A stretch of DNA of 64,000 nt, from contig JAZDMG010000028.1 of assembly GCA_043801165.1 (NCBI GenBank), positions 10,988 through 74,987 on the forward strand, read 5' to 3'. Source of the DNA: an archaeon (lineage in GTDB: Archaea; Nanobdellota; Nanobdellia; Woesearchaeales; SM23-78). Positions 39,283 to 52,495 of the stretch are shown piece by piece (positions within the stretch are counted from its first letter, which is position 1; the number at the start of each line of letters is the position of its first letter). Under the pieces are notes generated by a model. The model was not told where the DNA came from and did no database searches. It was given only the letters and a program-made list of their open reading frames with translations. Made by a program: the position numbers and the translations under genes.

Positions 39283-40419
39283 TTGATGGGAGATAAGGTG
39301 GCATTGATGAGCAAAGTAAGATTAGTATCGATTTTTCTGATAATATTTTTATTGGCGGCTACAAACGCACTTGCGGTAAGCGTAGTGCTGAAATCGCCTT
39401 CAAACAACTCAAAGATATCAACATCAAGACAGGATTTCATCTTCAGCTTTGACAATTACCAGGACATCTTGAACTGCACGTTGTTCATTGACAGCCAGCC
39501 AAAGAGAGTCATGAACAGCCTCATCAAGGTTCAGGATAATAAGATAGCAACAGAACTTGAAGATGGGGAGCATGCATGGTTCATACGTTGCTACGATTCA
39601 AGCAGCCTTGAGATTAATTCTGAGAGCAGGGCGCTTACGGTCGGATTGACAATGATAACCAAAGAAGGCTATGAAACATTATACAATAACAACGGATTCA
39701 GGAGCTACCTGATAACACTTTTCCAAGGTCAGAAGCCAATAACCCTGCCGCCAATGAAAGGAGGTGAGGACATCAGGCTAAAGATCAATAGCGACATACA
39801 TTACATAGACGTCCTGAAGATGGGAGCCACGACCAACTCCAGTTTCGTGGAGATTAGAGACAGGAGCAATGAGAAGAAATACAGATTGCTACTGACTGAG
39901 AGCGTGAATCTTGATCTTGACAATGATAAAAAAATCGATGCAACCATCAAGATTGTTGATATCAAGAGAGGAGTCGACGCATACTTCATAGTTACGCCCT
40001 ACCCTGAGGGACAGGCTCAGATAACAACGCCGGAGACATCAGAACCGGCAACAGAAACAAATGTTTCTTCAGACCAAACCACAACAATCACACCAGATCA
40101 GGGCCAGGCAAATGAAGAGGAGACCGACAGCCAGGAGCCACAGCAGACAGAACAACCTGCGGAGCAATCCTCTGAAGATCTGGAGAACAGCACACCAGCA
40201 ATCATAATAGCAATTATCGTTGCGGCGATAATAATCGCGGCAGTGGTAATATTTTCCAGCCGCAAAAAATGTAAAAAACCTGGAAAGAAAGAAGGCCGAA
40301 AAACACAAGAGCACAAACCAGCTCCTGATCAAGAGCATGAAACCAATGCTCTTGAGAGCAAAAAAGACGAAGAAGAGAAGTTTGATATAATAAAAAGCGC
40401 AGGAAAGAGAAAAAGATGA
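39283..40419 (+). CDS. Secreted surface protein, paralogue A: signal peptide, conserved domain of about 90 aa, T/E/Q-rich linker and C-terminal TM anchor
   Basis: The signal reads IFLIIFLLAATNALA. The anchor reads AIIIAIIVAAIIIAAVVIF. The N-domain is homologous to the next gene. Confidence 0.45.
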   Translation: MMGDKVALMSKVRLVSIFLIIFLLAATNALAVSVVLKSPSNNSKISTSRQDFIFSFDNYQDILNCTLFIDSQPKRVMNSLIKVQDNKIATELEDGEHAWFIRCYDSSSLEINSESRALTVGLTMITKEGYETLYNNNGFRSYLITLFQGQKPITLPPMKGGEDIRLKINSDIHYIDVLKMGATTNSSFVEIRDRSNEKKYRLLLTESVNLDLDNDKKIDATIKIVDIKRGVDAYFIVTPYPEGQAQITTPETSEPATETNVSSDQTTTITPDQGQANEEETDSQEPQQTEQPAEQSSEDLENSTPAIIIAIIVAAIIIAAVVIFSSRKKCKKPGKKEGRKTQEHKPAPDQEHETNALESKKDEEEKFDIIKSAGKRKR

Positions 40420-41153
40420 AAAAAAGAACAAGAAACGAAGTTTTTTTCGTACTCGTTGTGCTGGGACTAATACTTCTACTGACCGACAGGGATATATCTG
40501 TGAATGGCAGGGCAATCCAGGACATACAAGGGATAACCCTTGTTTCACCATCAGATAACACCCAGACCAAGAACGGCAACATCTTCTTCACATTCAAATA
40601 CAATCCCGAGACTAGTATGAAGAGCTGTTCGTTGATGATTGATGAGAAACCGGCTCGGATCATGGATACATTGCTCTCAGCATACAGCACCAGGATGCAG
40701 GCAGAGTTGGCTCCTGGAGAATATCATTGGGGTATAGCATGCATAGACTCTGATGATTTTGAGATTAAATCAGAAAGAAGAAACATCATCATCCTGCCTG
40801 AGGGAGAAAATCCTATCCAAGTCGATTATTTCTTCAACAAGCCAGGGACGAAATATACTTTCGAGCTAAAAGAAAATTTGGACTTGAACCTTGAGAACCT
40901 GGTGCCAAACGACGTCATCATCGCAAAAAGAGACAAGAGCTCATACGAGACAACAGTGCTCAGGATCAACCAGGATTACTCAAAGGACACCGATTCGATC
41001 GAGCTCATGATAATGCCTGGCACAAAAAGGGTCAAGATTAACAGGGGCGAATCACTGAAGGTTGATTTCAACAACGACGGCCTTTCGGATGTCACCTTAA
41101 CGCTCGTGAAAGTCTCATATAAAAGAGCATTCTTGAACATCAGGACTGACTGA
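40416..41153 (+). CDS. Secreted protein, paralogue B of the upstream gene (4-nt overlap)
   Basis: The signal reads VFFVLVVLGLILLL. The shared pattern L.SPS.N.......F.F.......C.L.ID..P...M......EL..GE..W.I.C.DS...EI.SE.R is present. Confidence 0.45.
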   Translation: MKKRTRNEVFFVLVVLGLILLLTDRDISVNGRAIQDIQGITLVSPSDNTQTKNGNIFFTFKYNPETSMKSCSLMIDEKPARIMDTLLSAYSTRMQAELAPGEYHWGIACIDSDDFEIKSERRNIIILPEGENPIQVDYFFNKPGTKYTFELKENLDLNLENLVPNDVIIAKRDKSSYETTVLRINQDYSKDTDSIELMIMPGTKRVKINRGESLKVDFNNDGLSDVTLTLVKVSYKRAFLNIRTD

Positions 41154-41303
41154 AAAAATAAAGCTATATAAAGGAGCGATTGATTCTTCGAATAAAGCTG
41201 TATTATGGGGCTGTAGTATCACCCTTAGAACCTAATTCTGGCTTATACAAACAATGCAGTACAAATGCATTACAAAGTATAAAAATGCTGACCTCCACAC
41301 GGA

Positions 41304-41732
41304 ATGAGAGGAGGTTGGAAGATGATAGACCCATTTGAAAGGACGAGATATATCAAAAACATTGTGCAGATGATATATCCTAAAATATCTCATGAGGAGC
41401 TGAATACCTGCATTCAAAGGATAGCAAAGCACAAGTATAGGAAGCAGATGAAGCTGTCTGAGAAAGAGAGCGTCATATGTGATTTGCTGCTTCAACACCA
41501 GATAAAGCCAGCTACAGCGTATCTCTGGTACAAGGTCCGTAACCTTCCGGCTTATTTACAGCAAGAGATCAGAGACCGAAAGCTGAGCATGACAGAAGCT
41601 TTCCAGAAGAACCTTGAAAGCAACAAGCCAATCCAGGTGCTGGGTGAAGAGCTTGGCAAGGAGATCCAGGAATACGTGAATGAACTGGCCAAGAGAGACT
41701 TCTTGAGGGGTGATGACTATGCAATTCAATGA
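41304..41732 (+). CDS. Hypothetical protein upstream of and overlapping the integrase. Possibly an excisionase or regulator-like protein
   Basis: A 142-aa ORF that overlaps the integrase start by 23 nt. Confidence 0.3.
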   Translation: MRGGWKMIDPFERTRYIKNIVQMIYPKISHEELNTCIQRIAKHKYRKQMKLSEKESVICDLLLQHQIKPATAYLWYKVRNLPAYLQQEIRDRKLSMTEAFQKNLESNKPIQVLGEELGKEIQEYVNELAKRDFLRGDDYAIQ

Positions 41733-42651
41733 TCAGGCTCCTGAAGAGCTGTATTCTCAGATAAAAGACAATAAGATGTCTCAAAGGCAGAAAAGATTCA
41801 TCATACAAGCTTTGAAAGAGCAAGGTTTCAAGGTCAAGAAGCAGCAAAAGAAATGGGTCCAGAGAAATAGAGGTAAGCTTCCCTTCAAACCGTCTGACCT
41901 GCCAAGAATCTTTGAGAACATGGACAATCTTAACGTCAGAATGGCCTCATTGGTCGCCCTTGTGACCGGCACAAGGAGGGCTGAGACTGTTGAGATCCTA
42001 AAGAAGAACATTGACCTTGAAGAATGCCGGATTAGGCTTGAGATAACCAAGAAAGGAGTGCCCCAAGACGTCTACTTCCCACAGTCATTCGCGCCCCTCT
42101 TACGGAAATGGTGCCATTACACCAGGGATAGCCCTTTTTTGCTGCCTCACAGGCTAACACCTAACAAGCCCATATGCCTTGCCTCGCTCAATTCTGGGCT
42201 TTCTAAGGCCCTAAAAAAGGCAGGGATGGCAGAAGCCATGTACGTCAAGGAAAACGGGCATACGGTCCAGAAATACGGCTTTCATAGCTTCAGGAAGTTC
42301 TTCTGCAGTATGCTCGTCAACAACGGGGTAAAGCCAGAGGTGGCAAGGATCCTTATGAGGCACGAAAAGGTAGAGCTGACTTTGAAGGTTTACACCCACT
42401 TAGGCAGAAAGACCCTAAACCAGGCCATGGAAAGGATAGACCCAATGTCAAGTTTTGGACTCAAAGAACCAAGACAACAAGACACCCCAAAAACACCCCA
42501 AATAGGCCAACAATTCGCAAACCAGAGCATACTGCTCTTCAACGACTACAGGAATGGAAAGATAAACAAGGAGGAGTATGAACAGAGCAAACAGGAATTA
42601 ATAAGTTTACAAAAAGTGTTTGATAATCACACCAATAATGAAATTCAATAG
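41710..42651 (+). CDS. Tyrosine recombinase / phage-type integrase
   Basis: The C-terminal catalytic box HSFRKFFCSMLVNNGVKPEVARILMRHEKVELTLKVYTH gives the R..H..R..Y pattern. The N-terminal segment LVALVTGTRRAE is present. Confidence 0.8.
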   Translation: MMTMQFNDQAPEELYSQIKDNKMSQRQKRFIIQALKEQGFKVKKQQKKWVQRNRGKLPFKPSDLPRIFENMDNLNVRMASLVALVTGTRRAETVEILKKNIDLEECRIRLEITKKGVPQDVYFPQSFAPLLRKWCHYTRDSPFLLPHRLTPNKPICLASLNSGLSKALKKAGMAEAMYVKENGHTVQKYGFHSFRKFFCSMLVNNGVKPEVARILMRHEKVELTLKVYTHLGRKTLNQAMERIDPMSSFGLKEPRQQDTPKTPQIGQQFANQSILLFNDYRNGKINKEEYEQSKQELISLQKVFDNHTNNEIQ

Positions 42652-42659
42652 CGAATAGG

Positions 42660-43187
42660 TTAAAATTTATCTGGAAAAATAATTTTGTGATTATCAAATA
42701 ATGGATCCTTTGGAACATTCATAGCCTTGTACATCTCGCTTAATAAAAATATTATTGAGAAAGAAGCGACGAAAAAAGTGATTTGAGGGTATGCTGGTTT
42801 GTTGTCTTTTGAAAGTATATCACGCATTTTCTTATCAAGAGAGATATCGCCTAAAGTAAAAAACCTATCCATGGTTTTCTTAGGTATCGTGTCTTTTTTT
42901 ATAATACCGTGAGCAAAGTCATTTCTAATTTTATTTACCAGGATTATCCTATTATATAATGTTTTTCTATCTTCAAAAAAACCTAAAGAATCAAGGAGTC
43001 TAACTTTACTCATAAAAGATTTTAAATGTTCGTTCTCAAAAATCACTTTTGAATTTTTAAAATATTTTTCAATAATCTTATCAATCAAGTATTCTATATT
43101 CAAGTGAAGAAATAAAACATGAAGTCTAATATCATCAATTTTTCTCAACTCTGCAACAACATCAGTGTAATATGCCCTGAAATCCAT
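42660..43187 (-). CDS. HEPN-like (Abi / DUF4145-like) protein with Rx4H motif (RNDFAHG)
   Basis: NKIRNDFAHG matches the HEPN Rx4-6H signature. It is the second gene of a 2-gene minus-strand pair in an AT-rich island. Confidence 0.4.
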   Translation of the reverse strand: MDFRAYYTDVVAELRKIDDIRLHVLFLHLNIEYLIDKIIEKYFKNSKVIFENEHLKSFMSKVRLLDSLGFFEDRKTLYNRIILVNKIRNDFAHGIIKKDTIPKKTMDRFFTLGDISLDKKMRDILSKDNKPAYPQITFFVASFSIIFLLSEMYKAMNVPKDPLFDNHKIIFPDKF

Positions 43188-43200
43188 TCACAATCCCTCG

Positions 43201-43659
43201 CTATTGTTTTTCAAATTCGCGTATATACTCCTTAGTTCTCTTTAAAGTATATCTGGCAAGTTCCAAGCTTTTTTTTATTTCTTTGATATCTTCCTCGTGC
43301 TCAGGTAACAACTTTTGCAATTCTGACAAACTTCTTTCTGCCAGGATGTCATTAATTTTTATTTTCCAAAATAGGATGCCTTGCTTCCTTCTTTTTGCTG
43401 CTCTTTTCACAGATTGACTTAGTGAAGCTGCTGCTCTTTGCAGAGGGGCGGATTCAAATTGTTCAGTGGGTTGATAAATTATTCTTCCGTACTCATCTGC
43501 TGTGCAGATTAAAGAGCCGTTATTGACACATAAACTTTTAGTATCCCACTTCAAGTATTTTAGAGCTTTTGAAGGTACAGCGAGAGCATAACTGGCTTTA
43601 GAAGGGTCTTTATGTGGTTTGAATTGGAGTTTTAGTTTTCTTTTGTATAACTCGAACAT
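43201..43659 (-). CDS. Hypothetical protein, upstream partner of the HEPN-like gene (13-nt gap)
   Basis: A 152-aa ORF. The N-terminal region may form a beta-barrel-like DNA-binding fold (AbrB-like?). This is uncertain. Confidence 0.3.
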   Translation of the reverse strand: MFELYKRKLKLQFKPHKDPSKASYALAVPSKALKYLKWDTKSLCVNNGSLICTADEYGRIIYQPTEQFESAPLQRAAASLSQSVKRAAKRRKQGILFWKIKINDILAERSLSELQKLLPEHEEDIKEIKKSLELARYTLKRTKEYIREFEKQ

Positions 43660-43753
43660 AATATTAGGTAATACTAAGCCGTATATAAAATTTCCCTATC
43701 GGGAAGAAAAAAGTCCCGATTGCGATATAAACACGTAGTAATATCGGTTTATC

Positions 43754-43897
43754 ATGCAAGAGATAATAACCTTCAAAATCAGCAAAGAGATAAAAAAAGA
43801 AATTCTTCAGAGGGCAAAAGAAGAAGAAAGAAATCTTTCTGAGCTCTGTCGATTATTAATAAAAAATCATCTCAGAGATAAAAATGGCAAAAAGTAG
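43754..43897 (+). CDS. Small ribbon-helix-helix (CopG-like) protein of about 47 aa. It is not in the ORF track
   Basis: MQEIITFKISKEIKKEILQRAKEEERNLSELCRLLIKNHLRDKNGKK gives a beta-strand then two helices. It overlaps the next ORF by 14 nt. Confidence 0.4.
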   Translation: MQEIITFKISKEIKKEILQRAKEEERNLSELCRLLIKNHLRDKNGKK

Positions 43898-44078
43898 AAC
43901 TATACAATTTCGATGTACAAAATCTCAGTTCGAGCGCATTCAGAATAAGAAGGAGGCTTTAGGTTATACTAAACTTTCTGATTTTCTTAGGGATTTGACC
44001 CTAAAAGACGAATTAGCATCATATTCTCTCATCAGAGAGATACACCAACGAGTGGTGGGAGGTAACAACAAGGGTTGA
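43884..44078 (+). CDS. Second small RHH-like protein
   Basis: IQFRCTKSQFERIQNKKEALGYTKLSDFLRDL gives an RHH pattern. Confidence 0.4.
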   Translation: MAKSRTIQFRCTKSQFERIQNKKEALGYTKLSDFLRDLTLKDELASYSLIREIHQRVVGGNNKG

Positions 44079-44273
44079 TAAGTTTTGAGAGGGATTGATA
44101 ACGGCCAGGTTTCAATGGGTCGTTATCATCCTTCTTTTATAAATTTTGTACTGAATTTGATTTGAGCCTATTAGGAGGCTATTGAATAATTTGTTGAGTT
44201 TAGGTTTTTCATGAAATCTAAACTAAATCAAACATGACTGTAAGAAACGAATTGAAAATTAGGAGGAGGTATT

Positions 44274-44594
44274 ATGAAGAATAACAGCGATCGAATAGTA
44301 TCAGTAAATCTCAGCCATAAGGCCATGTACGGGTTGATCCATGCAGGCATTATTGATGGCAGGGATAAGAACGTAAGAGAAGGTTCCGATATCAGCTTAT
44401 CAAGGTTTATAAGCGACTTGGTGGAGAGATATGTAACTGATAATGTCAAGGAGGCTCTCATTAATTACTATCAAGTCCGAATTGAGGAAGGGAATAACCG
44501 GCAGGAGGATATTGCCAATCAGAACAGACAATTTGCTGAAAAAATTAAGAAAATCAAAGAGAAATCAAGGGAGGACGATGATGAGCACAGATAA
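44274..44594 (+). CDS. Hypothetical protein on the island
   Basis: A 106-aa ORF with a charged C-terminus. Confidence 0.3.
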   Translation: MKNNSDRIVSVNLSHKAMYGLIHAGIIDGRDKNVREGSDISLSRFISDLVERYVTDNVKEALINYYQVRIEEGNNRQEDIANQNRQFAEKIKKIKEKSREDDDEHR

Positions 44595-45051
44595 ACAAGT
44601 TGAGGCTAATAGGAAGAACGCTCAAAAAAGCACCGGGCCTGAAGATTGCGATAGGTCCAAGTATAACGCAGTCAAATATGGCTTGACATCAATCAGTCAT
44701 TTTTCAAAAGAGGAAGAATCAACCATAAATGACATATACAACGATTTAGGTCAAATACTCACACCTAAAGATAAGCTTCAAGAGTTTCTCTTGGGCAGAA
44801 TGGCGCTGTATATGTGGCGGCTTCAGAAATCATCTCAAATTGAACAAAAACAGTTCAAGAACTCATTAATAGATTCACAGAATAAACAGGGCAATAAAGA
44901 TAAACAATTCATTCAGGAAATTCAAGGGCGTAAACCTAATATAACTGGTGAGAATATAGACACCAATATTGACTTGATTATGAGATATGAATCTACCAAT
45001 GAGAACAGATTGATTAGGCTTGTTAAGTTCTTCAAAGAGCTACAAACATAA
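44443..45051 (+). CDS. Hypothetical protein. The likely start is ATG 44578 (MMSTDKQ)
   Basis: An ORF whose upstream part overlaps the previous gene. Confidence 0.3.
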   Translation: MSRRLSLITIKSELRKGITGRRILPIRTDNLLKKLRKSKRNQGRTMMSTDKQVEANRKNAQKSTGPEDCDRSKYNAVKYGLTSISHFSKEEESTINDIYNDLGQILTPKDKLQEFLLGRMALYMWRLQKSSQIEQKQFKNSLIDSQNKQGNKDKQFIQEIQGRKPNITGENIDTNIDLIMRYESTNENRLIRLVKFFKELQT

Positions 45052-45298
45052 AATTGGCTTCGTTTAGCAAAAAAACCATCAAAAACGGTTAAAGAGAAGA
45101 CCAAATAAGGGCACTTACAAGCAACGTATAAGCTCGAGACAAGCACGAGGATTTCATAAAAAACCTGACAAACTGGACACTTGAAAAGGGGCACCAAAAC
45201 ATAGCTTAGGACAGTGACTGCGTTTCACAAAAACATGCTTGTTTTAATCTACTCACTCAAAATTTTGCATTATTAACGATCAATAGTGCCATTCCGTC

Positions 45299-45592
45299 TT
45301 AGTTCCCTTCTTGTGTTTCTCTTGCTTTCCAGTAGCATTCTTCGTAGTTTGTTGCTTTGTTTTCGAATAAGCATTTTTCTTGTGTTTCTTGGAAGTCTTC
45401 TGCGTTTATTAACTCATCTACACAGTACATTAGCGTAGCGTTGACTTTTGTCAGCTCATCTTTTGTTCTCCTCGTTTCTTTGTCGGTTAATAACACAAAT
45501 CCTACAAGAAGCAAAATCCCTACTGCAAATGCAATACTTAGTGCTTTCCAGTTGATTCCTTTTGCTTTCATCATTATCGACCCCCATACCAT
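45299..45592 (-). CDS. Small membrane protein with one TM
   Basis: The TM reads WKALSIAFAVGILLLVGFVLLT. Confidence 0.3.
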   Translation of the reverse strand: MVWGSIMMKAKGINWKALSIAFAVGILLLVGFVLLTDKETRRTKDELTKVNATLMYCVDELINAEDFQETQEKCLFENKATNYEECYWKARETQEGN

Positions 45593-45628
45593 AGAACTTA
45601 ATCATAGTTTTTAAATTTTCTTATGTTG

Positions 45629-47866
45629 CTACTTAAAGTCTTGCGTGGCGACATAGTAAAGCCCATCATAAGCCACACCCACGCCGATAACATCGTATTG
45701 TGGGTTCAAAATGTTACTTCTGTGCCCGGGGCTATCCATCCAGGAAGAAACTTGGGCGCGAGCTATGCTGTCCGGGTTAGAAGAAACATACCCTATGCCT
45801 TGGACGTTGCCTGTTGGCATTTTTCCTATGTTTTCGGCAACACCGATTGAATAAGATCCTCCTCCCAGAGATTTGTAAGCGTTATAACCGGCCCTGGCGG
45901 CTCTGGCACTCGGATCCTCGCCTTTCAGATTGGTATGTGCAAAGAAGTCATTCTCAACCATGTCCAGGCTGTGTGCTCTGGCTATATCTGCTAATTTATC
46001 ATCCCATGTTAAGGCTCTTAAACCTTGGCTTTTTCTTTCTGCGTTGGTGTATTCAAAAATGGCCTGTTCAACCTCTTTTGTTCTGTTAGAAACAGGCTGC
46101 GGAGGCGCTGTTATCTCTTCAAATGTCGTCTTCACTGCTTCGGAGCCGCTTTTAGCGATCTCAGAAACGTCATCAGCAATTTTAGATCCTTTTTCCTTTA
46201 GCTTCATCTCTTTTATTCCTGTAGAAATAGAATCAAAGAATGATGAAATCCCAATCCAAACCTTATCTAAAGAGAAGTTCCCCTTTTTAGGCTCATCTTT
46301 AAGCACTTCTTCAACAGATTCTTCCTTCGGGATCAATGTTATCTCTCTCGTTACGGTTGTGGTCTGCTTTTCGGCTGGCACAATCTCAGAAACAGTTAAT
46401 TCAACCCCGGGATATTTCCTGCTTAACACGCCAGTTATCTTGTAAACGTCTTTGGTGGTTCCTTTCTTGACGAACAATGCCTTTTGTTCTTGAGTAAGCA
46501 TTCTCAAAGGGATGCTCCTCCCAACATCATCTACTACAGAATCAACATATACGCCTCCTTGTTTAGTTCCTTCGATATCATTTTGGAGATAACCTTTCAA
46601 AATGACCTCTTTCTTATCGTATTCAGCCCAATTTACAAGGTATTCCCTCAAAGAAATCTCAACAGGAACCGCCTCCGTAATGGTTGTTCTTGTAGGCTCT
46701 TGCTTGGTATCGTTAGTTGAAACGGCATCCTGTGTCTTTGGCTGCATTAAAAAGACTATCAGAACGGCAACAGCTATGAGAACTAAAACAATTATAAGCG
46801 AGGTGAGTGCTGCTTTTAGCAGATTCGTATAATTCCGCGATCTTTTCTTAATCGGTTCTGATGCAGTCTGTTCTTGGTTAGCTTGGACTCCTTTTTCTGA
46901 TTCGCATTCGGTCTTCAATTGATATGATTCAGTGATTTTCTCTGGAATACCATAAAGTTTTGAACATCTGTGTTCCTCTGCGCGTTTGTGTTCTTCACAG
47001 AAATGTTCGTGACAATATCGGCATTCATAGGAGTGTTTTTTTAAGTCTTTATTGCAGGAATAGCATTTTTTCAGAATGGCCACGGGTTTCTTATCGTAAG
47101 TTATAAGCTCAGATTTCTTCACCTTGCCTTGCTTGACAGGATTACTCTCTCTTTCAATTGTCGGATACTTTGTAAGATCAATTGTTATTTGACGTTTCGA
47201 ATTATCAAGAATTTTGCCGAGGTTTTTTGAATATCTTTCGCTTTCTTCTTTTTTTTCAATTTGAAGTTTAAGGGCGTACTCTGTACAAGGATGGCCTCCT
47301 TTGTCTTCATCATTCAATCGATCTATTGCAGAAGGGTTATTGAAGTTTCTGAGGTAAGGATGTTTAGCTCTTACATGCTCTTCGCAAAAGAACAACTTGC
47401 AGTAGGGACATTGATGAAGAACTCTCCTTTTACGGCATCGAGCGTCATTACACTTAGAGCGGTCATCTCTATACGGATGTTCTGGCTTGGTTTTCTCTTC
47501 CTTAACATTTCCACCCCCGTGATATACGCCGCCAGGAGGTCTCCATATACGTTGACTTGTTGTTTCCATCTCGTTATAGAACGCAGTTGAATGATTATTT
47601 TCAAAGAGGTGCATGGTCTCATGAATGGCAGTTTCCCTGATCTCTTCGTTGCTTAACCTTTGTAAAATAGCCTTCCTGATACAGATAATGCCTAAATGAA
47701 CATGTATATGAGCTACTTGATCATTGCCGCCAAAAGGACAATCACCATCCCAAAACTCCACACGAGGAGGTTCTAAACCCCTGCTCTTTGAAGCTTCCGC
47801 AACATACTTCAGGAACAAGACTTGTTTATCGCTCATAATACGTCCAATGAATTCCCGACTATCCAT
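45629..47866 (-). CDS. Multidomain membrane protein: N-terminal zincin-like metalloprotease motif (HETMHLFENNH), two AN1-type zinc fingers, one TM helix, an extracellular linker and a C-terminal CAP/SCP (PR-1-like) domain
   Basis: The motif is HExxHx5H. The AN1 pattern Cx2Cx10Cx2Cx4Cx2Hx5HxC occurs twice. The TM reads LIIVLVLIAVAVLIVFLM. The CAP blocks HTN, GENI and GHRSNIL...IGVGVAYDG are present. Confidence 0.5.
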   Translation of the reverse strand: MDSREFIGRIMSDKQVLFLKYVAEASKSRGLEPPRVEFWDGDCPFGGNDQVAHIHVHLGIICIRKAILQRLSNEEIRETAIHETMHLFENNHSTAFYNEMETTSQRIWRPPGGVYHGGGNVKEEKTKPEHPYRDDRSKCNDARCRKRRVLHQCPYCKLFFCEEHVRAKHPYLRNFNNPSAIDRLNDEDKGGHPCTEYALKLQIEKKEESERYSKNLGKILDNSKRQITIDLTKYPTIERESNPVKQGKVKKSELITYDKKPVAILKKCYSCNKDLKKHSYECRYCHEHFCEEHKRAEEHRCSKLYGIPEKITESYQLKTECESEKGVQANQEQTASEPIKKRSRNYTNLLKAALTSLIIVLVLIAVAVLIVFLMQPKTQDAVSTNDTKQEPTRTTITEAVPVEISLREYLVNWAEYDKKEVILKGYLQNDIEGTKQGGVYVDSVVDDVGRSIPLRMLTQEQKALFVKKGTTKDVYKITGVLSRKYPGVELTVSEIVPAEKQTTTVTREITLIPKEESVEEVLKDEPKKGNFSLDKVWIGISSFFDSISTGIKEMKLKEKGSKIADDVSEIAKSGSEAVKTTFEEITAPPQPVSNRTKEVEQAIFEYTNAERKSQGLRALTWDDKLADIARAHSLDMVENDFFAHTNLKGEDPSARAARAGYNAYKSLGGGSYSIGVAENIGKMPTGNVQGIGYVSSNPDSIARAQVSSWMDSPGHRSNILNPQYDVIGVGVAYDGLYYVATQDFK

Positions 47867-47898
47867 CTTAAATCAATCCCTCAAATCAATTACCCGAT

Positions 47899-48210
47899 TC
47901 ATCGCATCTTATAAGGTATCCTCTTCTTCTCCAATAATATTTTCCTTATTTTCTGGCGAATCCAATGACCACGATAAGTCCATGGTTTATATGTAACATG
48001 ACTGGAATCAATAGCAATCCTGACGAGTTCGTTTTTTGTTGGAGCGCGACCATATTTTCGCTCGAATTTGCTGATCAACCTATTGAAGTCCCTGTTAGCT
48101 CTGACAATCATGCTCCGGGGGAGAAGAGGCTTTTTAGGTCTTGGAAATAACAGACTTCTTATCCAAAAAAATATTCCTCTAAGAAAACCTTTTCTACGGT
48201 AGCGTCTCAT
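47899..48210 (-). CDS. Small basic hypothetical protein
   Basis: A 103-aa R/K-rich ORF. Confidence 0.3.
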   Translation of the reverse strand: MRRYRRKGFLRGIFFWIRSLLFPRPKKPLLPRSMIVRANRDFNRLISKFERKYGRAPTKNELVRIAIDSSHVTYKPWTYRGHWIRQKIRKILLEKKRIPYKMR

Positions 48211-48296
48211 GTTTTACTAACAGCACCCCCTAAAAGCGCAGAAGTCTTTTTTAGCTTATAAACATTAGCAAAAAAACTAAGAAAACAAAAAATTCT

Positions 48297-48509
48297 CTAC
48301 GGTTGTTTGGCAGTTTGTATCGCGTATAAAACCAACACCAGAGCTAATGCTCCCCCAAGCTTTTCATAATTAAGATTTATATTAAATACGATAGATATAA
48401 AGATAATAAAGAAAAATATTGAGAGTATCAAAAGAACAGTCTTTATTCTCTTTTTCCTCAACCAGCTCTCATCTCGTTCTATTCCCTTCTTACTTCGGCT
48501 CATAATCAA
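48297..48509 (-). CDS. Small membrane protein
   Basis: 70 aa with one TM. Confidence 0.25.
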   Translation of the reverse strand: MIMSRSKKGIERDESWLRKKRIKTVLLILSIFFFIIFISIVFNINLNYEKLGGALALVLVLYAIQTAKQP

Positions 48510-48585
48510 ATAAGTATATGAGCCTGCTTAATAAAGTTTATTACTGGGAAAAGAATTAAATATTAGCTTAGAGTATCTCAAATAA

Positions 48586-49101
48586 ATGAGCAAAAAAGGC
48601 ATAAGATTCAAAGCTAAATACGAAAACAGAATTGCAGAAGAATGTGAAATTAAAGAAACACGAGATGGTTCTAAAATTATCATTCCAAAGAAGGAAAATA
48701 GTGACGGACTTCATGCATCATTACACCCTTCAGGAATTTTTAATCTTAGCTCTGGCAAAAGTTATGTCTATGATTTTCTTAACAACCCGAAATTAAAAGA
48801 ATTCGTTGAAAAAAGAGTAAACGATCTTGAAAAGATTGATTGTCCTATCTTTGCCATCATTTTAGATTTAAGAGATATTAAAAAATATGCATCTATAAAG
48901 GACAACGAGCACATCGTTGATTTTGATGCCTATTTCATGGAATCAGAACAAGTAGAAATCCAAAATGATGATTTTAGTTTTGTTTTGAAATATAATGAAC
49001 CATTCTATGAAATAATTGTATTTGATGAGGAATTAAATGCATTTTATGCTGCGAAGAACAAACCAGGTTATGGCATGCCTTTAAATCCAAAAAAAGATTA
49101 A
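48586..49101 (+). CDS. Hypothetical protein
   Basis: A 171-aa ORF in an AT-rich segment. Confidence 0.35.
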   Translation: MSKKGIRFKAKYENRIAEECEIKETRDGSKIIIPKKENSDGLHASLHPSGIFNLSSGKSYVYDFLNNPKLKEFVEKRVNDLEKIDCPIFAIILDLRDIKKYASIKDNEHIVDFDAYFMESEQVEIQNDDFSFVLKYNEPFYEIIVFDEELNAFYAAKNKPGYGMPLNPKKD

Positions 49102-49177
49102 CTGTAGCGTGGAGAACCGATTGAATCTAACCAGGCCATGTAATTGAGCTTATCAGTATTACGAGAAACAACGAAGT

Positions 49178-49513
49178 TTATTTAGGCCCTTTCGGTAAGA
49201 AGTATCCAAATAACCAGAGAATCGTTAAGATAGCACCCATAAGGATAAACGGATGCCCGGAGAGTTTTCCAGCGAGCCAAGAAATCCAGTTTATCTCAGT
49301 CGGCACAACGTTATCAACTATGTAACCCGTGGTTCTATCCAGATTCTCATCTGACTTATTAGGATTGCCAAAATCAACACTATTGATAAATATAATGGCT
49401 CCGATGCCAGCTATCACTGCTACAATAGTCAGAAAGATTGTTGGTATATCCTCAATCCAGTCCATAAGATTAGGTGATGGGATATTCATACTTAAAGATA
49501 TCGGGAGCACCAA
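49178..49513 (-). CDS. Small membrane protein with 3 TM segments
   Basis: The hydrophobicity pattern supports this. Confidence 0.3.
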   Translation of the reverse strand: MVLPISLSMNIPSPNLMDWIEDIPTIFLTIVAVIAGIGAIIFINSVDFGNPNKSDENLDRTTGYIVDNVVPTEINWISWLAGKLSGHPFILMGAILTILWLFGYFLPKGPK

Positions 49514-49684
49514 TGATATGAATTGTACCTTAAAACCCTGTCCAACCTACAAACGATAAAGTTTTAAAAGAGTACTATCCTCTTGAGGCTTAGAATACTG
49601 TGTGGAGTTAGCCAAAAGCGCTTATTTCAGCTGATTTAGGCGCTGTAAGGCCGGGATTAGGAAAATACTGTCCACAGTACATTT

Positions 49685-49758
49685 GGGGCTGTAGTGTAGC
49701 TTGGCTATCACTGGCGCTTGGGGTGTGTCCAACCGGAGTTCAAATCTTCGCAGCCCCA
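49685..49758 (+). tRNA. tRNA-Pro (anticodon GGG), tentative
   Basis: The acceptor is GGGGCUG/CAGCCCC plus A. The D-arm is GUGU..UCAC. The anticodon arm is GGCGC-UUGGGGU-GUGUC with two G-U pairs. The variable loop has 4 nt. The T-arm is CGGAG-UUCAAAU-CUUCG. Confidence 0.6.
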
Positions 49759-49926
49759 CTTAATCTTTTTGCCAAGGCAAAAACATTAATGAAAAAACTA
49801 GTGCAGGACTTTCGCCTATCGGCGAAGTCCTGCTCCTCATGTGCTACCGAGCAGCAGACTGCGAGTGTAGTGCCTTTCCCTCAAGGCTTTCATAAAGGCT
49901 TGGTTTACATCTTCGCAGCCCCACTT
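49744..49926. repeat. Direct repeat of the tRNA-Pro 3' end (ATCTTCGCAGCCCCACTT at 49744-49761 and 49909-49926). A 14-bp-stem hairpin (49803-49833) lies between the copies
   Basis: The 18-nt copies are identical. Both are followed by T-runs. Confidence 0.7.
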
Positions 49927-52290: not shown

Positions 52291-52372
52291 ACATTTCTTT
52301 ATTTTTTTATTAGCCCCTTATTTTAAAACCAAAATTTTATAAACTCCTAACTTTTTCAGCAGAGTAGACCAC

Positions 52373-52495
52373 CCCGCCTAGCTCAACGGCAGAGCGTTCG
52401 GCTGTAGATGTTGCTGGACAGACCCGTAGCGGTCATGGATGAAAAGCAACCAGCCGAGCCCGAAAGGTTCCTGGTTCAAATCCGGGGGCGGGGAT
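52373..52495 (+). tRNA. tRNA-Tyr (anticodon GTA) with a canonical 51-nt intron after position 37
   Basis: The acceptor is CCCCGCC/GGCGGGG plus A. The D-arm is GCUC-AACGGCA-GAGC. The anticodon arm is UUCGG-CUGUAG[intron]C-CCGAA. The T-arm is CCUGG-UUCAAAU-CCGGG. Confidence 0.75.

Follow-up and report, generated by a model that had tools for sequence, protein, structure and literature searches.

Within a window of 64,000 nucleotides taken from a woesearchaeal genome (contig JAZDMG010000028.1 of assembly GCA_043801165.1, positions 10,988 to 74,987), the gene at 45629-47866 on the reverse strand encodes a protein that joins a minimal zincin metallopeptidase domain and two zinc fingers of AN1 type, predicted to lie in the cytoplasm, to an OB-fold and a CAP domain on the other side of a single transmembrane (TM) helix. 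Judged from its sequences, the family to which this protein belongs is chromosomal, archaeal and mostly found in DPANN lineages; it is large and modular and has not been curated. We tentatively favour a reading that falls somewhat short of an even chance, namely that the protein is a membrane-tethered cytoplasmic protease whose fingers would hold a substrate and whose outer OB and CAP domains would, upon binding a ligand, position or control the protease. A small basic protein encoded directly upstream would be the best candidate for the substrate or partner. The features of the gene and of this neighbour, all on the reverse strand, are as follows.

45629-47866, reverse strand: whole gene, one open reading frame (ORF) for a single-pass membrane protein of 745 amino acids (zincin, AN1-like finger, AN1 finger, TM helix, OB, CAP)
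47537-47866, reverse strand: minimal zincin metallopeptidase domain, residues 1-110, predicted cytoplasmic (AlphaFold2 model, Foldseek and profile matches)
47591-47623, reverse strand: HExxHx5H zinc-binding and catalytic motif HETMHLFENNH, residues 82-92 (family conservation)
47681-47740, reverse strand: possible extra metal site C43, H53, H55 and C62 (residues 43-62) in the beta-sheet of the zincin (co-conservation)
47285-47452, reverse strand: finger 1, AN1-derived two-zinc finger, residues 139-194 (ligand conservation, hhalign)
46964-47065, reverse strand: finger 2, canonical AN1 zinc finger (C6H2), residues 268-301 (exact spacing, Pfam, PDB)
46745-46813, reverse strand: single TM helix, residues 352-374, preceded by KKRSR, predicted N-in/C-out (hydropathy)
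46334-46693, reverse strand: predicted extracellular OB-fold domain, residues ~392-511 (AlphaFold2 model and Foldseek)
45635-46054, reverse strand: predicted extracellular CAP/SCP (YkwD-like) domain, residues 605-744 (Pfam, TIGR02909, PDB)
47899-48210, reverse strand: small basic ORF of 103 amino acids with a conserved core of ~70 amino acids, candidate partner or substrate (recurrent neighbour)

The ORF runs unbroken through all 745 codons, with no frameshift and no internal stop codon, so that the locus is a single gene, as the first-pass annotation had supposed, and not two ORFs separated by a frameshift. Nor is it a product of two ORFs joined by error, because every domain junction recurs in an independent homologue. 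The closest homologue, P0002, is collinear over residues 1-530 with 44% identity, the junction of OB and CAP is reproduced in P0134 and P0129, and the combination of core and CAP is found in P0021, P0051, P0063, P0100, P0115 and P0122. A protein of 772 amino acids at locus L018 aligns in three collinear high-scoring segments, which correspond to the core, the TM helix plus OB, and the CAP domain; it contains the same domains in the same order, minus the second AN1 finger. The protein is identical to NCBI entry MFH0870232.1, which is labelled 'MAG: CAP domain-containing protein [archaeon]', where MAG stands for metagenome-assembled genome, on a contig of 90.7 kb, and public annotation of the family offers only the names 'CAP domain-containing protein' or 'YkwD'. 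The deposited NCBI model (735 amino acids) begins at M11 and thus omits 47837-47866 on the reverse strand. The homologues P0002 and P0003 align from M1, where MDSREF matches MDSRTF and MNSREF residue for residue, and therefore the deposited start is probably 10 codons too short and the M1 coordinates are used here.

Residue conservation was counted in an alignment of 117 family members. In the motif at residues 82-92, H82, E83 and H92 are kept in all 117 sequences and H86 in 116, which bears out the HExxHx5H zincin motif noted at first pass; by its appearance this is an intact catalytic motif. The AlphaFold2 (AF2) model of this region reached a pLDDT of 92.7 and has a zincin fold. Foldseek searches of the PDB returned selecase (4qhf, 3.5e-4), jannalysin (4jix, 4e-3), Wss1 (5xbn, 8e-3) and SPRTN (6mdx, 0.11), with target TM-scores of 0.52 for 5xbn and 0.54-0.59 for the Wss1 structures 5jig and 5ln5. 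As selecase and jannalysin are the top matches and score above Wss1, the likeness to the latter supports the assignment at the level of the superfamily only. A library of viral structures yielded SprT-like and IrrE-like proteins as matches of the same model. When a profile of 40 family sequences was compared with the PDB, the best matches were MJ1213/selecase (8e-6), the catalytic domain of HtpX (2e-5) and yeast Wss1 (8e-5). The family pattern HEvtHlleas.H was aligned with HELLHLKYGKYH of MJ1213 (E 8e-6), and the ~110-residue minigluzincin scaffold with its third ligand downstream is present. Wss1 and SPRTN have been grouped with the minigluzincins by Balakirev et al. (PMC4559962), and hence the matches to selecase, jannalysin, Wss1 and SPRTN agree with one another.

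At the level of sequence families the picture is less specific. None of the Pfam and NCBIfam models matches the core with a score that reaches the model's threshold. The target on its own gave sub-threshold Pfam matches to YgjP-like (3e-4) and WLM (0.018), the latter (PF08325) with 15.6 bits against a cut-off of 26; among 123 family members, the WLM model matches 32 at E < 1e-3, the strongest match having an E of 2e-6. We assign the domain to the minigluzincin/WLM/SprT fold group and, since the WLM and YgjP cut-offs were missed, do not file it as a member of the WLM family. The SprT/WLM-like character proposed for the N-terminus from the sequence was thus right at the level of the fold. Apart from the catalytic motif, the zincin contains four further residues that may bind a metal ion. 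Positions 43, 53, 55 and 62 read CHHC in 77 of the 117 members and (D/E)HHC in another 15. Moreover, H55 and C62 go together: 98 of the 99 members that have H55 also have C62, and 17 of the 18 that do not have H55 lack C62 too. This co-conservation suggests a possible third metal site; it is suggestive and not proof, as the members are kin.

Both clusters of cysteine and histidine residues that follow the zincin are of AN1 type, as had been proposed, but the first is a divergent derivative and the second stays under the Pfam cut-off. Finger 1 follows the pattern C-x4-C-x8-C-x2-C-x4-C-x2-H-x27-H-x-C. Its eight ligands are conserved throughout the alignment: C139 in 115 of the 117 sequences, C144 in 109, C153 and C156 in 117 each, C161 in 116, H164 in 113 (with a cysteine in the other 4), H192 in 117 and C194 in 110. 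The spacing departs from canonical C6H2 in the first pair, which is C-x4-C, and in the final H-x-C pair, which lies 27 residues past H164; H169, at the position that canonical AN1 spacing would require, is not conserved. In 115 of the 117 sequences an aromatic residue stands ahead of the fifth cysteine, a hallmark of AN1 fingers described for Cuz1 (PMC5035049). Alignment with hhalign of the finger 1 profile to the family's own canonical AN1 fingers gave a probability of 97.1% and an E of 5.9e-11 over the first six ligands, and the family profile matched solved AN1 fingers at E 0.0045-0.04. Because of the eight conserved ligands, the aromatic hallmark and the homology detected by hhalign, we regard finger 1 as an AN1 derivative with a long insertion ahead of its last ligand pair.

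Finger 2 shows the exact spacing C-x2-C-x10-C-x2-C-x4-C-x2-H-x5-H-x-C, with F289 preceding C290. It was matched by Pfam zf-AN1 (PF01428) at E 2.9e-5 and 24.5 bits, under the cut-off of 27.9, and by the solved AN1 finger 1wg2 in the PDB at E 3.5e-4. In the homologue P0008, a downstream AN1 finger at a similar position does reach the Pfam cut-off, with 32.6 bits.

The TM segment has a hydropathy peak of 3.45, and no other window of the protein exceeds a Kyte-Doolittle (KD) score of 1.2. The possibility of another TM helix at residues 540-560, by which the CAP domain would come to lie inside, was considered and rejected on the same grounds, no window outside residues 330-385 being above 1.2. All 15 cysteine residues lie in the N-terminal 350 residues and none beyond the helix. 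The orientation was assessed across the 41 family members with a single TM helix and a long tail. In these, lysines and arginines number on average 5.3 in the 15 residues ahead of the helix and 1.4 after it, a bias that 38 of the 41 members show (p 6e-8), and the C-terminal side of the helix has a 2.4-fold higher density of N-x-S/T sequons (p 0.002). The target has such sequons at residues 385, 530 and 594. These two biases across the family support an N-in/C-out topology, with zincin and fingers predicted inside and OB and CAP outside, which is in line with the single membrane span and the sidedness of the CAP domain that had been read from the letters at first.

Between the helix and the CAP domain the first-pass annotation had overlooked an extracellular OB-fold domain, just as it had overlooked the conserved gene upstream. 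The AF2 model of this all-beta region reached a pLDDT of 89.4, and Foldseek matched it to OB domains only, with a probability of 1.0. The matches comprised the OBody/AspRS OB domain (3e-4), the RPA OB domain (1.4e-3), SSB and the periplasmic protein YgiW (3e-3). Neither the Pfam scan nor the PDB sequence search gave a sequence-level match, and the OB fold was identified by the fold search alone.

The C-terminal domain was confirmed as CAP. Pfam PF00188 matched it at E 2.8e-21 with 77 bits against a cut-off of 21.1, NCBIfam TIGR02909 (YkwD) at 2.4e-20 and PDB 4ifa at 1.2e-11. The motifs AHS at 631, AENI at 677 and GHRSNIL at 714 align with their equivalents in 4ifa. The protein is accordingly a member of the CAP superfamily in sequence, with a predicted extracytoplasmic location of the domain. 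A CAP domain in a different protein was encountered on a plasmid of Streptomyces sp. NBC_01558 (L021, 277-1938; WP_326844336.1). This protein of 553 amino acids is annotated as a sigma-70 family factor and has an HxxxCxxC anti-sigma-like motif, an arginine-rich stretch followed by a hydrophobic segment, a proline- and serine-rich linker and a C-terminal CAP domain. By its sequence, it provides a bacterial precedent for a CAP domain on the outer side of a regulator that spans the membrane once.

Homologues of the target were collected by an exhaustive HMMER search with residues 1-590, in which representative clusters were counted, and related loci were gathered with an alignment of 6 sequences; a word-index search with the whole protein found only the protein itself. 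At E <= 1e-3 the HMMER search yielded 506 representative clusters, and at E <= 1e-10 it yielded 279. Domains were mapped locally in the best 150 of the 506 clusters. About 130 of these 150 have the zincin and finger 1, the latter being a near-constant companion of the zincin across the family, while an extra AN1 finger occurs in about 20, an OB domain in 24 and a CAP domain in 8, of which 6 also carry the core. A subset of the listed clusters matches only the TM helix plus OB part. The Pfam scan of the 123 members added transglutaminase, NosD, SpaA-like, DnaJ and UvrD helicase domains as partners. In the 116 core-containing members, the core is followed by one TM helix in 63, by several in 10 and by none in 43, and 41 single-TM members have tails longer than 80 amino acids. 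Members are therefore soluble, tail-anchored, or equipped with interchangeable outer domains (OB, CAP, transglutaminase, NosD). The combination is not unique in view of these numbers, as the core is common to a family within 506 clusters and is joined to CAP in at least six further clusters and in the protein of L018. Full-text literature searches returned no account of an archaeal combination of AN1 finger and metalloprotease, and nothing relevant for DPANN together with CAP.

The named sources of family members are MAGs of Woesearchaeota, Nanoarchaeota and Micrarchaeia, together with a few of Methanoperedens and Methanobacteriota. One clear member, with 35% identity over residues 1-212, stems from a MAG labelled 'uncultured Bacteroidota bacterium' (L001, CAZRXH010000039.1) and must be either misbinned or a rare copy in a bacterium. 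Two further proteins deviate in their architecture. P0026 (L023, 1009-3501) is a soluble protein in which the zincin and the AN1-like finger are fused to a full UvrD-type helicase, and in P0133 a DnaJ domain at the N-terminus is followed by a TM helix and an OB domain, the HExxHx5H core being absent.

The distribution of outer domains and hosts bears on the possibility that OB and CAP form a surface adhesin or a module that binds envelope or lipid, for instance in the contact between a DPANN archaeon and its host, in which case the protease would serve self-processing, shedding or turnover. CAP is well supported as an extracytoplasmic binding domain, the OB-fold resembles that of the periplasmic YgiW, most relatives belong to DPANN lineages whose cells are attached to hosts, and P0129 and P0134 consist of OB and CAP without a protease core. 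Nevertheless, we regard this explanation as unlikely, as the cytoplasmic core, with its invariant catalytic residues, is better conserved than any other part of the family and in many members outer domains are missing altogether.

Many members are soluble or tail-anchored, and this would also be expected of a constitutive membrane-proximal quality-control protease, similar to HtpX or to Wss1/ZFAND, which degrades damaged or stalled proteins. The AN1 fingers would then bring in substrates, an unfoldase such as archaeal Cdc48/VAT, or the proteasome, and the outer domains would merely anchor or localise the enzyme. The profile matches to HtpX and Wss1 given above point in this direction, and so does P0133 with its combination of DnaJ, TM helix and OB. 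Eukaryotic AN1 proteins bind proteins in proteolysis pathways, those of the Cuz1 type acting with the proteasome and Cdc48 (PMC5035049), and Wss1 partners with Cdc48 (PMC4559962). Such a role would leave unexplained both the elaborate, varied outer domains and the recurrent small gene next to family members, and in our estimate it has only a modest chance of being correct.

This small gene of 103 codons ends 32 nucleotides ahead of the target start on the same strand. A homologue is located directly upstream of a family gene in L007, with a similar arrangement in L028, and directly upstream of the 772-amino-acid zincin-finger-TM-OB-CAP protein in L018. A divergently oriented homologue adjoins P0003 in L015, and another lies 1.2 kb upstream of P0115 in L017. 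In L024 and L026 homologues adjoin an AN1 protein and a CAP protein, respectively, where both contigs end. Homologues in L019, L020, L025 and L027 have no family gene within the visible flanks, and at one further locus a UvrD helicase of 872 amino acids is encoded 1.5 kb away; P0026, the UvrD-fused member, has no partner homologue within 1 kb of flank. Altogether, homologues stand beside family genes on at least 4 independent contigs from different sources. This adjacency is far more frequent than chance would produce for two rare genes, and it is not universal. The encoded protein begins with an amphipathic segment, which in L017 is a full TM region, and continues with a basic core of ~70 amino acids in which S-H and G-H are invariant and WIRQKIRK is near-invariant. 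It had no match in Pfam, PHROG, PADLOC or the PDB, and a word-index search with the single sequence was empty.

The strongly basic nature of this neighbour might be taken to indicate a DNA-binding partner, and thereby a protease of the Wss1/SPRTN kind that acts on DNA-protein crosslinks or on proteins bound to nucleic acid, with a finger that binds DNA in the manner of the SPRTN zinc-binding subdomain. The fold matches to Wss1 and SPRTN and the fusion of the core to a UvrD helicase in P0026 would fit such a function. We give it very little credence, since the target has a membrane anchor and is predicted to have the larger part of its mass outside, its finger is of AN1 type, of which the known cases bind proteins, and no DNA-binding domain was detected.

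On the other side of the target, 36 nucleotides downstream and on the same strand, lies an ORF of 97 amino acids (45299-45592, reverse strand) with one N-terminal TM helix and a cysteine-containing tail. No fetched locus contains a homologue and no family was matched; the ORF may be co-transcribed with the target.

Returning to the reading that we favour, the AN1 fingers would hold a cytoplasmic protein or peptide for the adjoining protease, while the outer OB and CAP domains would bind a ligand of the envelope or the environment. Binding of the ligand would position or switch the protease. By analogy with BlaR1, or with the ImmA/IrrE proteases and the small regulators that they cleave, the protein would in this way be a transmembrane protease of one component, and the upstream small basic protein would be the best candidate for its substrate or partner. 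The outer domains vary among the members between OB, CAP, transglutaminase, NosD and SpaA, which one would expect of binding or sensor modules. Among the minimal zincins of this fold group are enzymes that cut small regulators (BlaR1-BlaI, ImmA-ImmR, IrrE-DdrO) and others that cut protein adducts (Wss1, SPRTN). BlaR1/MecR1 and ImmA/IrrE direct a cytoplasmic zincin at a small regulator, as is proposed here, and IrrE-like viral proteins share the zincin fold of the target; the relation is one of analogy and not of membership. BlaR1 furthermore has a C-terminal extracellular sensor domain that is comparable to the outer domains of the target. Its repressor substrate is encoded next to it; the gene adjacent to the target, here and at no fewer than four other loci, is a small basic ORF without a recognisable domain, whose product is a candidate for such a substrate. 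On this analogy the target perhaps works like BlaR1 without being an M56 protein.

Several observations weigh against this mechanism. In BlaR1 the zincin sits within a multi-pass membrane domain, whereas the single TM helix of the target follows 240 residues after the zincin, and the Foldseek match to BlaR1 (E 1.5) is not significant. The AF2 model has a pTM of 0.60 despite its pLDDT of 92.7, so that the placement of the finger relative to the protease is undefined. The 43 of 116 core-containing members without a TM helix imply that the core needs neither the membrane nor a signal from outside. Finally, several family loci, among them the locus of P0002, the closest homologue, do not have the partner gene, and the product of that gene showed no recognisable DNA-binding or other domain in Pfam and PDB searches.

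The first-pass annotation had placed the gene on a mobile element, and the surroundings of the target make this plausible. The relevant features, all on the forward strand, are given below.

41710-42651, forward strand: tyrosine integrase, left end of the putative island (Pfam Phage_integrase 1e-19; phrog_1 integrase 6e-29)
41206-41217, forward strand: putative attL, 12-nucleotide copy of the 5' end of tRNA-Pro (repeat TGGGGCTGTAGT)
49685-49759, forward strand: tRNA-Pro(GGG), its 5' end being the putative attR (ARAGORN; Rfam tRNA 44 bits in a local search)

The repeat TGGGGCTGTAGT is present only at 41206-41217, just left of the integrase module, and at 49684-49695; two or more matches were seen in 2 of 100 shuffles. 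The stretch from the integrase to the tRNA gene has a GC content of 0.383 compared to 0.446 and 0.437 in the flanks. Likewise, the GC content at third codon positions (GC3) is 0.24-0.47 in the ORFs of 42660-49513, with 0.389 for the target, and 0.48-0.62 outside. By contrast, the integrase (0.564) and the ORF ahead of it (0.552) have host-like GC3 values. Apart from one HEPN-like protein, the remaining ORFs of the stretch had no match. Overall, the region of the target fits an integrated element of ~8.5 kb, with the reservation that the repeat is short and the GC3 of the integrase host-like, and the target copy may have been carried in by such an element.

What does not follow is that the family as a whole is tied to mobile elements. 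P0002 is encoded among genes for radical-SAM, Memo/AMMECR1, TatA/TatC, NYN and MetRS proteins, and P0115 among genes for LemA, NUDIX, HD, Dus and VKOR proteins, with no integrase in either context. Core relatives were found neither in IMG/VR nor among GenBank phages nor in PLSDB plasmids, where the proposed search for the same architecture in viruses and plasmids matched the CAP domain alone, and PADLOC had no match for the target. It therefore seems quite improbable to us that the target is a cargo gene that manipulates the host or excludes superinfecting elements, as had been suggested, and neither role has specific support. Its position between the integrase and a tRNA-Pro gene with a 12-nucleotide direct repeat, the low GC3 of the surrounding ORFs, the HEPN-like ORF nearby and a resolvase at one of the partner-homologue loci would be in line with such a cargo; the housekeeping contexts of its closest homologues, the outcome of the database searches and the host-like GC3 of the integrase are not.

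A few other observations were made in and around this region. The HEPN-like ORF of 175 amino acids (42660-43187, reverse strand) contains an RNDFAH (Rx4H) motif and has a very low GC3 of 0.26. Its HEPN matches were weak (Pfam HEPN pEK499_p136, 0.073; PADLOC CARF_HEPN, 1.4e-4) and it also matched phrog_5483 at 3e-8; the ORF that immediately precedes it (43201-43659, reverse strand) might be its partner in a toxin-antitoxin or abortive-infection system. The 3' end of tRNA-Pro (24 nucleotides, 49738-49761) is repeated with 92% identity at 49903-49926, 165 bp downstream of the tRNA gene, which by its sequence is a second att-like remnant, distinct from the repeat of the 5' end at 41206-41217. Rfam applied to the whole window missed tRNA-Pro, which the local search recovered with the 44 bits listed above. 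It detected another tRNA at 52372-52494 on the forward strand, missed by ARAGORN, which is 123 nucleotides long and presumably contains an intron, as in archaea. Left of the putative island, the overlapping ORFs 39283-40419 and 40416-41153 (both forward strand) share an N-terminal domain of ~90 residues (SPSxN...F.F...C.L.ID..P...GE[HY].W.I.C.D) and each has a signal or TM-like start; in sequence they resemble paralogues of a surface protein that lie in tandem.

Several known systems can be compared with the target. Burroughs, Iyer and Aravind reportedly predicted in 2011 in Mol Biosyst that prokaryotic AN1, B-box and LIM fingers are partners of membrane-associated peptidases. This prediction, like the target, joins an AN1-type two-zinc finger to a membrane-associated peptidase in a prokaryote, with the finger proposed to bind a peptide or protein and not to take part in ubiquitin signalling. 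With Wss1/WLM and SPRTN/SprT the target shares the minimal zincin fold, the HExxHx5H spacing being that of Wss1, and as in SPRTN a zinc-binding module follows the protease. It differs from them in being archaeal, in its predicted membrane anchor and ectodomain and in its WLM score under the cut-off; SUMO-, ubiquitin- or Cdc48-binding motifs are not known in it, no search aimed at SIM, VIM or SHP motifs having been made. Selecase and jannalysin, the minigluzincins of M. jannaschii, are the best profile and structural matches to residues 1-110 and are also archaeal. Minigluzincins represent minimal scaffolds of the catalytic domains of M48 and M56. They are stand-alone soluble proteins of ~110 amino acids without fingers, TM helix or outer domains, whereas the target has all of these. 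Its C-terminal 140 residues are clearly of the type of the bacterial YkwD/SCP CAP proteins (4ifa; TIGR02909); those proteins are secreted or are lipoproteins, while the CAP domain here forms the distal end of a protein with a predicted cytoplasmic protease. New here are the large uncurated family as delimited by the search, an AN1 finger that carries an insertion and is fixed to a zincin, the ectodomain of OB and CAP, the possible third metal site and the partner gene. The logic of the domains would not greatly surprise a specialist, but the family, of considerable size and unannotated, lends itself to testing.

The genomes of DPANN archaea are small and these organisms rely on contact with other cells, and to our knowledge very few of their proteins for membrane signalling or of their surface proteins are understood. 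If the protease did nothing but housekeeping proteolysis, the family would be an ordinary addition to the catalogue of zincins. The joint occurrence of AN1 fingers and Wss1-like zincins in archaea bears on the origin of the eukaryotic versions. It may be speculated, and we consider this rather doubtful, that the core of zincin and AN1 finger is an archaeal sister of eukaryotic Wss1/WLM, that is, a pre-eukaryotic module of protease plus AN1 finger for stress proteolysis that is here wired to sensors outside the cell. Together with the basic partner it would then constitute an unrecognised two-gene system for transmembrane signalling in DPANN archaea, in which a ligand outside the cell would set off cleavage of the partner in the cytoplasm. 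Should control of the protease come from outside, the family would offer a simple one-protein route for outside-in signalling in archaea.

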